Origin: Escherichia coli
GTDB lineage: Bacteria; Pseudomonadota; Gammaproteobacteria; Enterobacterales; Enterobacteriaceae
Strand: one strand, 5' to 3'
NCBI RefSeq assembly: GCF_051903065.1
Contig: NZ_CP178438.1
Length of the DNA: 64,000 nt
Part shown: positions 12,001-18,000 of the stretch, one piece after another
How the letters are laid out: every line of letters starts with the position of its first letter
How positions within the stretch are numbered: position 1 is the first letter of the stretch
Position numbers: made by a program

Positions 12001-15000
12001 GAATTAAACTTGTTTTTTCTAGCACGGAGATATAAAGCGATCCTGACTATAATGTGACCAGAAATAATGAATTAGCCGTAAAATTGCTAAACCAGGACTA
12101 ATAACGCCGGTGGCTGAGTACCTCCAAAGAAAAAGGATGTTTTAATTATTTTACGTGATGTACTGAAAAGTTAAATTCGTTAAATTACTTAAGAATAATT
12201 CGTATGCAATTTGAATATTTGCATCCCGCAGATTAATGCTGCGATAAATAGCGCCGCTGCGCCGCAGAGTGTGGCACTGGCGAGCGCCGACGTTCCGTTG
12301 CCGAGCATACTGGTCAGCGCCGGGCCAAGAATTTGCCCGATACCATAAATGAGTGTCACAAAGCCCAAAAGGTTAAGATTTCCCGGCACGCTAAGCTGGC
12401 GGGCGATGGTCATCACCAGCGAGGTCGTTCCCATAAAAGTGCCGCCAAAACCAATACTGCTGATGATGAGTAATAAAGGAGAGCTGCTGGCGAGCGTTAA
12501 CAGCACGCAGATCGCCTGCACCAGCAAATTCGCGGTCAGGCAAGGTAATGCTCCCCACCGTTTGGCTGCCCACAGCCAGCCAAAGCAACCTGGGACAATC
12601 GACAAGCCAACCAGTGTCCAGAGGTGAGCCGTCAGCACAGGCTGGCCCGCGTCTTTCGCCATGAGCGGCAGGTATGTGGCGACGATGATATAACCAAAAC
12701 CCGCCAGGCCATACAGAATCGCCAGTAGCCACCAGCTCATGGGTTGTTGCGCGATTTTTGCCAATGGCGCTGGCGGGATAACGTGTTTATCCGACGGGAT
12801 GAGCAGCGCCAGAGCAAGCAATATAATGGCAGAAAGTGCTCCGGCACCTTTCCACAACGTTTGTGAAGAGAGGGCAAAATGCAGGCCTGCCAGCACATAT
12901 TCATTACCCAGAGCGATGCCGACGCCAACACCAGAAAATAGCGCCGCAAGGACAAAAGGATGGCGAGTATGTTGCATGATGAGCGTTGAGCCGAAAATCA
13001 ACATCCCGGCGCTGGCGACTCCCGCCAGAAAGCGAATGATGAAAACCAGAAGAAACGGCGGCAGCCACGCCATCGCGAGGATTAATAATCCGGTTGCGAG
13101 GGCGGAAGCTAACAGGAACGGGCGCAGGCGTGAGGGTAAATGAAACGCGCCGAATGAAAACAGCAGGCTCCCCGCCAGATACCCGGCATAGTTACCACTG
13201 GCGATCCATGAGAGTTCGCTAAATGAAAACTCGCCTTCCGCCAGCATGACTGGCAGCATCGGCGTATAGAGAAAGCGGCCTAAACCCATACCTAAGGTCA
13301 GAACCAGCATCCCGAATAACGCGGTGCTGAAAGAAAAACGTTCTACGGGATGCGATGTCGAATTCATGTTCTGCCTGGTTTGTATTATTTTGAGTTAACA
13401 AGTTAATAACAAAAAAGGAGAACCTGCCAGACTGTTATCGTGATTTTGTCGACGTAAAGCGATAAAAAAGATTCGGTTCGCCAACGATATAGATGTTGCC
13501 GCTATCATCCATCGCTATCCCTTCCGCCTGCTTGATGTTGTGTGAAAGGCCATACTTACCTTTGGTTAACGACATTTCGCCGATCACGTCACCTCTCACG
13601 GTCACTTCCTGCAGGGCGCGTGACTCATGTGACAACACCAGCAACGTATTTTTCTGTGGGTTAAATTCCGCGCCAGAAACATCGTCTAAAGTAAACTGAC
13701 GCTGCAACGTTTTATCTTTGCTGATATGCAACTCATCGCTACGCAATAGCCCGGTTACTTTGTAGACATCTATCGGATTTTTCTCTTTAAAAAACCAGAA
13801 GGTATGGTCCTGAGGGGAGTAAGCCAGTCCTTCAAAGCCACAGTTAGTAGGCGTTTCCTGCAATGGGATTTTAATTTTTTTGAGGATGCTCACTTCCGAG
13901 TCAGCGTTAAGTGAAATCACATAAATGGCGTAGTCACGTTCATCACTGATGACAAATTTATTATCACCAATGTATTCAATCGTCTCGAGATCCTTAACAA
14001 AATCGAGCGGAATGGTGCGGATCAAGTCGCCCTCGGTCGTCATTTCAACGATGGTTGCAGGTTTGTTGATAGTGCTAAATAAGGTATTGCTCTGCGCTGA
14101 CCAAGTCAGTGAGGAGATATTTTTAGTTACTCCTGTAATCTCTTTACCATCGATAGTGGCCTGATAATTCTGAAACCCTGCGACATGCTGGCTTTTACGG
14201 ACGCAGGATTGCACAAAAAACAGGCTTGCCGCCACGATGGCGCAAAGAAAAACGATAAAGGTGATGCGCTTTTTCAACTTATTGCTCCTTATTATTGCTT
14301 TTTTTTTCTCGTCAAATTCAGTGCGACAGATAAGGAGTGGCTTTGTTGAATAAATCGAACTTTTGCTGAGTTGAAGGATCAGATCACGTATCTTCCCGAC
14401 AACGCAGACCGTTCCGTGGCAAAGCAAAAGTTCAAAATCACCAACTGGCCCACCTACAATAAAGCCCTCATCAACCGTGGCTCCATAACTTTCTGGCTGG
14501 ATGATGAAGCTATTCAGGCCTGGTATGAGTCAGCAACACCTTCTTCACGAGGCAGACCTCAGCGCTATTCTGACCTTGCCATCACGACTGTGCTGGTCAT
14601 TAAACGCGTATTCAGGCTGACCCTGCGCGCTGCGCAGGGCTTTATTGATTCCATTTTTTCTCTGATGAACGTTCCGCTACGCTGCCCGGATTACAGCTGT
14701 GTCAGCAGGCGGGCAAAGTCGGTTAATGTCAGTTTCAAAACGCCCACCCGGGGTGAAATCGCACACCTGGTAATTGATTCCACCGGGCTGAAGGTCTTCG
14801 GTGAAGGCGAGTGGAAAGTCAAAAAGCATGGCCAGGAACGCCGCCGTATCTGGCGTAAGCTGCATCTCGCCGTTGACAGTAAAACACATGAAATCATCTG
14901 CGCTGACCTGTCGCTGAACAACGTTACGGACTCAGAGGCCTTCCCCGGGTTAATCCGGCAAACCCACCGGAAAATCAGGTCAGCCGCCGCCGATGGCGCT

Positions 15001-18000
15001 TACGATACCCGGCTATGTCACGATGAACTGCGGCGTAAGAAAATCAGCGCGCTTATCCCTCCCCGAAAAGGTGCGGGTTACTGGCCCGGTGAATATGCAG
15101 ACCGTAACCGTGCAGTGGCTAATCAGCGAATGACCGGGAGTAATGCGCGGTGGAAATGGACAACAGATTACAACCGTCGCTCGATAGCGGAAACGGCGAT
15201 GTACCGGGTAAAACAGCTGTTCGGGGGTTCACTGACACTGCGTGACTACGATGGTCAGGTTGCAGAGGCTATGGCCCTGGTACGAGCGCTGAACAAAATG
15301 ACGAAAGCAGGTATGCCTGAAAGCGTGCGTATTGCCTGAAAACACAACCCGCTACGGGGGAGACTTACCCGAAATCTGATTTATTCAACAAAGCCATAAG
15401 GAGTATACGGATGAAGCTTAATGAATTCTTAACGCGGGCGATGAAATAGTAAACGCCGCAGGGGGGCGGCGGTTGTCTCTGGATGGCAGAACATTTTCAG
15501 CTTACATCGACTGATAAATGCGCCTCATCCATGAATGATAGATGAGGCGGTTAACGTTTAAATGTTAATCTATATCGTCTGCCATACCCACTCTGTTTGG
15601 GTGATTATTGAACTATTCTTCAACTATATATGTTGGCTGATAAGGCGTTAAACCCGGAATGGAAAATCTTATATTTACAACTTCTTTTAAACGGGCTTGA
15701 TTAAAACTGTTACTGTCCTGTTGCTCGGTACTGTTATTGGTTTGTTTATCGGTACTGTCATTGACCTGTTTATCGATATTGTCATTGGCTTGTTTATCGG
15801 TACTGTCATTGGCTTGTTTCTCGATACTGTCAATGGATTGTTTCTCGATACTGTCAATGGCTTGTTTCTCGGTACTGTCATTGACTTGTTTATCGGTACT
15901 GTCAATGGATTGTTTATCGGTACTATTATTGGCTTGTTTCGCGATATTATCATTGTTCAGATATGCTCCCTCAAGAGAGACATTTTTCGCTCTGACATTG
16001 TAAAAACAGACATTTTTAAAAATCGCATCTATAAATATCGTATTGTCAACCCATGCATAGTCAAATAGGATATCCGAACAATTTGCACCAGTACAATTAG
16101 TATTGTAGAATTTTGCATTCGAAAAGTTTGCATTAGAGAGTTCACAATTTGTTAAATTAGCGTTTGAAAAGTTGGTATACATGCAGATAATACCAGTAAG
16201 ATTATATTCTGAAAGATCTTTTCCCGATAGATCGGAATAATTTAGTATTGCGCCAGTAAGAATTACTTTAGGTGTTCCCGGTATTTGAGGTGTTCCAGGT
16301 ATTTTAGGCGTTGCAGGTATTTTATGTGTTCCAGGTATTTCAGGTATTTTAGCAGTTTCAGATGTTGCAGGTGTTGCAGGTGTTGCAGGTGTTTTATATA
16401 GAATCACTGTTGTGAAATCTATATATTCAAGATAAGCGTTGCTAAGGTTACTTCCAGTAAAATTAACGCCAGTGAGAACTTTTCCGCTGAAGTTACTGTT
16501 TCGTAGATTTGCGTTTTTGAAATTTACATAAGTCAAGTGGCGAACTTTACGAAAATCATTATTTTCTAATGAGGCATTTTTAAATTTTGCATTACGCAGA
16601 TCACAATCTGTAAAATCCACGCCTTCACAGATCGTACCGGAGAAATCCGCTTTTCTAAGAATGCTGCCATTAAAATTGACATTCCTTAGAACCATTTTAG
16701 ACAAGTCTATACCGGTTAAATCCATTTCTGCTAAATTCAACCCTTCGATACACCGTTGCCCCGTTGAATCTTCAGGAATAGCAGTGCTAATAGTATTGAT
16801 GACAACATCACCTATCGTGAAGGTCATTGTAATTCCTGCATCAGAGATAGAGAGTTTTCGCGTAAGACGTTCACTCTTATCTCCAGTGATACTCTTCTGA
16901 GCAACGTAAAAGCGCTCGCATGTGTCACAAAATCTTTTCCAGCTCTCATTTGGGGTCAGATTATTGTCCGGGAGGAAATTAGCAATGCTATAAAGATCGT
17001 TCAGGACGCTACTTCTTATTTCAGGAGAGGCGCATTCAATAATTTCAAAGGTGGATATTGTATTTTTAATTTTATCTATATTATCCGTGAGATTTCGTGA
17101 TCCTGCTATATTTGGTTGCTGGTGGTTTTCTTTGTAGTATTGCAGCAAATTTTCCCATTGTAAGTTTGTAAACGAGAAAGTTTCAGTCTTGTTATTGTTG
17201 TCCCGTATGGTTAATTGATTTTCTACTGGGTCAAAAGAAATCATGAAGTTATTCAGTTGTTGATATTGATGAGTGGCATCTAATTTCACTTCAAATGAAT
17301 TTGAACTTTTGCAGGCATGTTTTAAAAACTTATCACAGGGAAGGTGTTGATCTTTATCTACGTGTTGTGGGTCATTGTGCAAAACAGAGAAAATACTCTC
17401 TTTCAAATTGTTCTTGTCAATATAGATTGGTAGTTGCGCTTTTTGTTCCATTATTTTAATAAACTGCTGCAGTTGCTCGGTTTTAACATTGCAGTGATGA
17501 CTTATATCTTTATCTTTATCTTTATATTTAACAGTTAATACGCTTTCATTATCATCTTGTCGATTAAATATTATTTTTAGATCGCCAACGTCAAACTCAT
17601 GTAAACCATTTCTTTTGGTTCTGCCGATGATTTGTTCTGTTGTTGATGAATATCTATTTAAGGTTAATTCAAGATTGTCGGGATTAGAGATAAGGTGAAT
17701 AAAAAGATTCAGTACACGCTTAATCAAACCATCATTCAAATGATTTATATCATAATTAATTTGTTTTTGTATGGTTTCAATTTCCGTGTTAATATCAAAT
17801 GGTAGGTTGTTTTTTTCATGGCAAGCTTTTAGTCCCGAATACATGCCGAGTGTTGGGAAAATATCCTGGTATATGTTTAGGGAGCCCATATTTTTATCCT
17901 TGAATTGTGAAATGTTCTTCTAAATCTAAAATAATCAGGGGGATGGGTAAAGATAAGCTTCGCACAGAAACTTATCTTTTAACATTACAACACCCGGTAA

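Follow-up and report, generated by a model that had tools for sequence, protein, structure and literature searches.

An IS903B insertion that probably uncouples yjiK from its native promoter in an Escherichia coli strain

We analyzed a stretch of 64,000 nucleotides of an Escherichia coli chromosome (RefSeq assembly GCF_051903065.1, contig NZ_CP178438.1), hereafter called the window, which covers the yjiC-iadA-iatD-yjiJ-yjiK-...-hsd-hpa-tsr-...-fhuF region. The subject of this report is the upstream region of the yjiK-type gene (13435–14277, minus strand), which holds a complete copy of the insertion sequence (IS) IS903B. The gene encodes 280 amino acids from a TTG start codon, and in genomes lacking the IS it corresponds to the RefSeq coding sequence (CDS) annotated as “SdiA-regulated domain-containing protein.” Its product matches Pfam family PF06977 at 2e-91 and has 83% identity to K-12 YjiK; a signal of hydrophobic or lipoprotein-like character is present at its N terminus. 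The Shine-Dalgarno sequence of yjiK, AAGGAG (14285–14290, minus strand), lies 7 nt upstream of the TTG and has been kept beside the gene. On the downstream side, yjiJ follows yjiK at 67 bp with no terminator-like site in between; the upstream neighbor is an AT-rich pentapeptide-repeat gene resembling espX6 (15613–17889, minus strand), which the IS does not disrupt. The best explanation of the locus as a whole, to which we assign a probability of roughly 0.8, is that the IS903B insertion uncouples yjiK from its native promoter.

The element occupies positions 14339–15395 on the plus strand (1057 bp, 52.7% GC), with its transposase gene reading away from yjiK. Its ends are 18-bp terminal inverted repeats; the left repeat (IRL), GGCTTTGTTGAATAAATC, spans 14339–14356 on the plus strand, and the right repeat (IRR) spans 15378–15395 on the minus strand. 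The two are identical at 18/18 bases and diverge directly beyond. With 3 mismatches allowed, GGCTTTGTTGAATAAATC had only 2 matches in the window, compared with 0.11 expected by chance, and 2 matches were obtained in 0 of 100 shuffled windows. The original prediction of an IS903-like element of 1057 bp, with clean terminal inverted repeats and identical 9-mers on both sides, was borne out upon re-inspection: the 9-mer ATAAGGAGT exactly abuts the IS both on the yjiK-proximal side (14330–14338) and on the far side (15396–15404), where its last 3 bases belong to the putative native −10 hexamer described below. By an arithmetic estimate, the probability that two given 9-mers are identical by coincidence is ∼4e-6. 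The transposase gene (14416–15339, plus strand) encodes 307 amino acids from a GTG start. This frame is open throughout and retains D121, D193, and E259, which we take to be the catalytic DDE positions of the IS903 transposase. The protein scores 357.6 bits against the NCBIfam model NF033579 (IS5 family transposase; cut-off, 140). On an identical copy, the Prokaryotic Genome Annotation Pipeline (PGAP) places the start of the same frame at a TTG (14371 here), which gives 322 amino acids and a CDS of 969 bp.

Three names had been offered for the element, namely IS903B, IS102, and an ISKpn26-like element, and the first of these is the one that held. Over its full 1057 bp the element is 100% identical to E. 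coli copies named “IS5-like element IS903B family transposase” in RefSeq, whereas IS102 of pSC101 has 92.6% nucleotide identity to it over 1057 bp without gaps, with 293/307 residues identical in the protein. Under the ISfinder rule, isoforms share at least about 95% nucleotide identity, and IS102 falls below this threshold. ISKpn26 is ∼1.2 kb long and belongs to the IS5 group; it is an unlikely identity given the 1057-bp length and IS903-type ends of the element. Because of the complete identity to IS903B-annotated copies, as opposed to 92.6% for IS102, we assign the element to IS903B (IS5 family, IS903 group), a name that derives from the RefSeq annotation of identical copies.

IS903B as found in PGAP-annotated E. 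coli and in Klebsiella has the same 1057 bp, perfect 18-bp repeats, 9-bp duplication, and single DDE transposase. The element itself shows no differences from these copies, and its insertion site alone is new. IS102 of pSC101 and IS903 of Tn903 likewise share its size, ends, and gene layout, and a 9-bp direct target repeat has been reported for IS903B in wcaJ (PMC9769513). Among 5,426 complete E. coli genomes, 1,993 have related IS903B copies, at a median of 2 and a maximum of 47 places per genome. Few mobile elements of Enterobacteriaceae are as common as IS903B, and the copy described here is an ordinary one.

The same 5,426 complete genomes served as our comparison set, to which metagenome contigs of the Joint Genome Institute (JGI) were added in the search for the IS junction. 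The complete genomes closest to the window, those of strains 23CRST027 and 23CRST031 from human faeces in Ecuador, are 100.0% identical to it at positions 3000–27000, save for one gap of exactly 1066 bp. This gap equals the IS plus one target copy and is the sole structural difference across the 64 kb; the other differences over the whole length are 4 single-nucleotide polymorphisms (SNPs) and one 1-bp insertion or deletion (indel) within an IS1 copy. In these sister genomes the empty site consists of a single ATAAGGAGT in the context GCGACAG-ATAAGGAGT-ATACGG, and the same empty site is found in more distant genomes without the IS. When the IS and one 9-mer were removed in silico, the 23CRST027 sequence was obtained with 1 mismatch in 8,935 bases, at position 15645 and off the junction.

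The original prediction had called the event a simple and probably recent transposition and had named comparison with IS-free alleles as the way to check it. In those alleles the junction sequence is restored, with ATAAGGAGT present once, and because near-identical sister genomes carry the exact empty site, we conclude that the transposition was simple and recent. Neither the 5,426 complete E. coli genomes nor the JGI metagenome contigs yielded a single instance of the left IS junction, so that, as far as the searched collections show, only the source strain carries the insertion. In unrelated IS903B copies of other genomes, alignments run 11–25 bases past IRL into the flank seen here, with reduced identity; these are probably chance BLAST extensions.

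The lineage is rich in IS903B, with 20 places in 23CRST031 compared with the genome median of 2, and the element is expanding there. Multi-copy repeats of this kind are the usual cause of misassembly, which raises the question of whether the IS at this position is a misplaced repeat. An assembly artefact, however, would not yield an exact 9-bp duplication of a single-copy empty-site sequence next to perfect IS ends, and we regard this explanation as extremely improbable.

Among the small differences from the sister genomes, the only SNP near the IS, at 15645, is G here and A in 23CRST027 and changes codon 749 of the pentapeptide-repeat gene (Pro here, Ser in the sister). The window has an intact hpaG, with GAG (Glu86) at 49466, and 23CRST027 has TAG at this codon, so that RefSeq flags its gene as a pseudogene with an internal stop; the strain analyzed here is therefore not a simple descendant of that isolate. 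The indel, near 1123, falls in a C-run of an IS1A copy (∼873–1569) between yjiC and ytiC, which reads CCCC here and CCC in 23CRST027, and could be either a true variant or a homopolymer sequencing error.

The insertion also affects how yjiK appears in a mechanical open reading frame (ORF) track, where the gene is extended to 330 amino acids (13435–14427, minus strand). Because this ORF starts at a TTG inside the IS, and the empty allele gives the 280 amino acids of the RefSeq CDS, it is an IS-fusion artefact, as had been stated from the outset.

Orthologues of yjiK were fetched from species-representative genomes with a degenerate anchor placed ∼200 nt inside the CDS, so that the upstream regions were unselected. 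The nine upstream regions compared (this allele, K-12, two further E. coli, E. whittamii, Escherichia sp. E1V33, a metagenome-assembled genome labelled Citrobacter sp., and two Citrobacter amalonaticus) fall into four unrelated upstream contexts. A single conserved island is found across all nine. It is composed of TTAAGRATTCATTAAG, invariant at 15 of 16 positions; a 9-base spacer with 2 invariant positions; and the hexamer TATACT, which is the same in 9/9. The 35 bases upstream of this block have 14–23% identity to this allele, which is the random level. The footprint shared by the Escherichia and Citrobacter yjiK orthologues is NTTAAG-N5-ATTAAG-N9-TATACT. In the window it corresponds to the direct repeat GTTAAG-AATTC-ATTAAG (15417–15433, minus strand), hereafter the box, followed 9 nt downstream by TATACT (15402–15407, minus strand).

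We infer from this conservation that the block is the yjiK promoter, with TATACT as its −10 hexamer and the box over the −35 region. The promoter call rests on conservation because scores from a promoter scan do not by themselves beat those of shuffled sequence. In the position weight matrix (PWM) scan of the empty allele, the three best sigma-70-like candidates all lie beyond the insertion point. A GC-rich hairpin with a T-rich tail (15454–15471, minus strand), resembling a terminator and located downstream of the espX6-like gene, probably ends the transcript of that gene and bounds the yjiK promoter region; because of this hairpin, the promoter would be confined to the ∼110 bp that the IS splits.

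RpoD holoenzyme has been shown to bind the K-12 yjiL-yjiK spacer in vitro, and Shimada et al. offered CTGACC-19-TACAAT as a guess at the yjiK promoter (PMC3946193). We rejected this candidate: it falls within ytiA, ∼130 bp upstream, and has not been conserved in the allele studied here. The RNA polymerase binding peak of the same study (PMC3946193) is compatible with the TATACT promoter too.

The insertion falls directly against this putative promoter. On the yjiK strand the target 9-mer reads ACTCCTTAT and comprises the last 3 bases of TATACT (TAT|ACT) and the next 6 bases. On the far side of the IS, the box (15433–15417), the spacer, and an intact TATACT (15407–15402) are followed by CCTTAT and then by the first base of IRR, into which the hexamer now reads. 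The yjiK side keeps the Shine-Dalgarno sequence and 61 bp of upstream region, and the box and hexamer are now 1066 bp farther from the gene. The former −10 position relative to yjiK is taken by a junction hexamer, GCCACT (14336–14341, minus strand), within the minus-strand sequence AAAGCC|ACTCCTTAT. The insertion had been placed 52 bp upstream of yjiK, inside the leader near the ribosome-binding site. The distance is correct if its endpoints are the TTG at 14277 and the first base of the left 9-mer, and becomes 61 bp when measured from the IS end itself; the site is better assigned to the −10/+1 boundary of the predicted core promoter than to the leader. The view that the native yjiK promoter was displaced is supported by the footprint, which puts both the putative −10 hexamer and the conserved box on the far side of the IS.

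In the course of events that we propose, IS903B entered between the espX6-like gene and the yjiK-type gene by simple transposition, with the usual 9-bp duplication from a staggered cut. The transcription start point, predicted 7 nt after the −10 hexamer, would then coincide with the terminal base of the IS at IRR, and the displaced promoter would direct transcription into the IS, antisense to the transposase gene. Regulated transcription of yjiK would be expected to be lost or strongly reduced, and transcription of yjiJ may drop likewise. Residual expression of yjiK would need read-through over ∼1 kb of untranslated antisense IS RNA.

Several observations weigh against the uncoupling of yjiK from its promoter. 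In the empty allele, the top sigma-70-like candidates reach scores of 8.1–9.2, and the median best score of shuffles is 8.2. The antisense strand of the IS contains only one weak terminator-like site (14993–14980), and read-through from the displaced promoter could reach yjiK. The target preference of IS903, WTTYA-N9-TRAAW (PMC2577343), is matched by the site GACAG-N9-ATACG at ∼1 of 10 positions, so that an insertion hotspot due to the preferred motif was rejected; this poor match weighs neither for nor against the uncoupling.

The same weak terminator-like site is consistent with a functionally silent insertion, in which either read-through keeps yjiK expressed or the promoter is off under almost all conditions. 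A normally-off promoter would fit with one K-12 data set that we searched (Kim et al. 2012 supplements), which contains no transcription start site for yjiK. The insertion is also private to one strain, with no sign of selection. Against silence, the transcript would have to traverse 1.06 kb as untranslated antisense RNA, and long RNAs of this type are typical substrates for Rho-dependent termination. Moreover, although box and promoter remain together, the leader would be ∼20-fold longer, which makes quantitatively equal expression unlikely. We consider a silent insertion rather unlikely, though worth keeping in mind, and favor the uncoupling of yjiK.

The original prediction had also allowed that the native promoter was replaced by outward-reading IS sequence. 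An outward promoter borne by the IS, or a hybrid of an IS −35 and a flanking −10 at the IRL end, would make yjiK constitutive. IS903-group elements of Paracoccus have outward promoters in their terminal part (PMC3281130), and IS-mediated gene activation is well known in general (PMC9208149). The Paracoccus promoters, however, were mapped to the 3′ end, whereas yjiK adjoins the 5′ (IRL) end. A consensus scan found no minus-strand promoter at the left end of the IS or at the junction, and the best PWM scores were 5.1–5.7 for the minus strand of the left 200 bp of the IS and 4.7 for the 61-bp retained flank, compared with the shuffle median of 8.2. GCCACT, the hexamer formed at the junction, argues in the same direction, and a literature search found no report of an outward promoter in IS903B. 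Since the IRL end shows neither an outward nor a hybrid promoter that exceeds background, this part of the prediction was not upheld, and we consider activation of yjiK by the IS to be improbable, at less than one chance in ten.

It was also considered whether the IS had struck an RNA element in the yjiK leader rather than a promoter. The target 9-mer as it stands on the mRNA strand, ACUCCUUAU, could pair with the Shine-Dalgarno region AUAAGGAG, 37 nt downstream, as an anti-Shine-Dalgarno stem, and the IS would then duplicate or disturb a translational control element that includes CUCCUUAU. The 8-bp inverted repeat is perfect (14285–14292/14330–14337) and appears in the minimum free energy fold of both alleles; by a rough estimate, an 8-mer exactly complementary to the Shine-Dalgarno region would arise by chance within 100 nt with a probability of ∼0.002–0.01, and the only allelic variation in the stretch is the length of an A-tract in the loop. 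The local fold, however, is no better than that of shuffles (z = −0.5; 55 of 200 shuffles fold as well), and the K-12 and Citrobacter leaders have no equivalent pairing. The predicted transcription start site, 7 nt after TATACT, would lie within or past the anti-Shine-Dalgarno sequence and give an mRNA without it, and the left duplicate leaves the stem intact anyway. This explanation has very little probability in our view. A search of the whole window with Rfam detected nothing at the IS target and returned SymR alone (26844–26920; RF01809, 91.7 bits), opposite symE.

The loop tract itself is a homopolymer of the yjiK leader at 14299–14307, read as T9 on the plus strand and as A9 on the mRNA strand, and its length among strains is 9, 8, 7, or 6 bases. 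It is nearly the sole variation in the 190 bp upstream of yjiK.

The box upstream of the putative −10 hexamer is a direct repeat with an 11-bp period, present as GTTAAG-AATTC-ATTAAG here and in Escherichia and as TTTAAG-GATTC-ATTAAG in Citrobacter, and we treat it as a candidate site for a response regulator of the PmrA/BasR type. The PmrA box of Salmonella has been given as CTTAAG-N5-XTTAAT (PMC3973317) and has also been described as a YTTAAK direct repeat (PMC10927774). The corresponding K-12 sequences are CTTAAG-GTTAA-GTTAAT at arnB and CTTAAG-GTTGG-CTTAAT at eptA, both in the same orientation as the yjiK box. As at yjiK, the arnB/pbgP and eptA/pmrC promoters have a TTAAK-type direct repeat with a 5-bp spacer ∼9–10 bp upstream of the −10; in yjiK, 9 nt separate the repeat from TATACT, and in arnB, where we read TAAAAT from the sequence as the −10, the interval is 10 nt. 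The yjiK half-sites begin with G and A in Escherichia, whereas those of PmrA boxes begin with C or T; the TTAAG core and the 5-bp spacer are shared.

The strict pattern NTTAAK-N5-NTTAAK occurs only 2 times on both strands of the whole window. The other match, TTTAATCCGTACTTAAT (53828–53844, plus strand), is located in the interval from lgoT to the 3′ end of lgoR. Among the papers searched, none links yjiK and PmrA. By analogy with the arnB and eptA promoters, BasR/PmrA-type control of yjiK is conceivable, but we regard it as doubtful. ArcA or another OmpR-family regulator is possible at the box, which matches what we take to be the ArcA consensus at 9 of 15 positions. A wider proposal, which we likewise advance only tentatively and consider unlikely as it stands, is that yjiK has a deeply conserved promoter of the class II type, undescribed so far, whose box binds BasR/PmrA or a related OmpR-family regulator, and that the strain is a natural promoter knock-out.

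The genes around the insertion differ in part from those of K-12. The espX6-like gene, annotated as espX6 in some genomes, belongs to a version of the locus found in ∼634 of the 5,426 genomes; K-12 lacks the gene and has ytiA directly preceding yjiK. Compared with K-12, the espX6-like gene and its flanks (15405–18260, 31–39% GC) stand in for the 3′ end of ytiA (DUF3343), and homology to K-12 restarts at CCGCGTTAAG, just upstream of the putative yjiK promoter. The length of the espX6-like gene varies among strains, with 758 amino acids here and 773 in XH990. A 12-codon plus-strand ORF, MKLNEFLTRAMK (15411–15449), is preceded at 7 nt by a canonical AAGGAG that lies within the right target copy, and the bidirectional hairpin at 15454–15471 comes after it. 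We judged this ORF to be spurious: it is antisense to the conserved promoter block, its ATG lies in the variable N9 spacer, and this ATG is absent in K-12. Farther along the window lies the usual “immigration control” region (26844–26920 and 27064–35400), in which the SymR antitoxin RNA is followed by a locus for type I restriction-modification, another restriction endonuclease gene, and a BrnT/BrnA toxin-antitoxin pair. For the Salmonella homologue of yjiK, a role as a determinant of phage resistance has recently been put forward without validation (PMC13216507).

Insertion of an IS that uncouples a gene from its promoter is a textbook, routine kind of mutation. In Klebsiella, ISKpn26 at −64 and ISKpn14 at −52 of mgrB likewise lie between the promoter and the start codon and uncouple the gene (PMC11700468). 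The mgrB cases come with a selectable phenotype, colistin resistance, and with expression data, whereas the yjiK case is known from sequence alone and shows no sign of selection. The event is of a kind already known, and the conserved yjiK promoter module is the only product of the analysis that is mildly new.

Taken by itself, the finding is of little import, being ordinary biology brought about by a common IS. The insertion is nevertheless a clean marker that separates this strain from its near-identical Ecuadorian relatives, and it warns annotators that the 330-amino-acid yjiK ORF is spurious. It has also exposed a conserved putative promoter module for yjiK, a gene of uncharacterised function, and the strain with the IS and its sister strains without it form a natural pair for studying the yjiK promoter and gene. 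If the tentative proposal for the box were true, yjiK, a PF06977 gene that is core to Escherichia and Citrobacter, would join an envelope-stress or metal-response regulon, and the regulated promoter would yield antisense RNA over the IS903B transposase gene, which may damp the activity of that copy.

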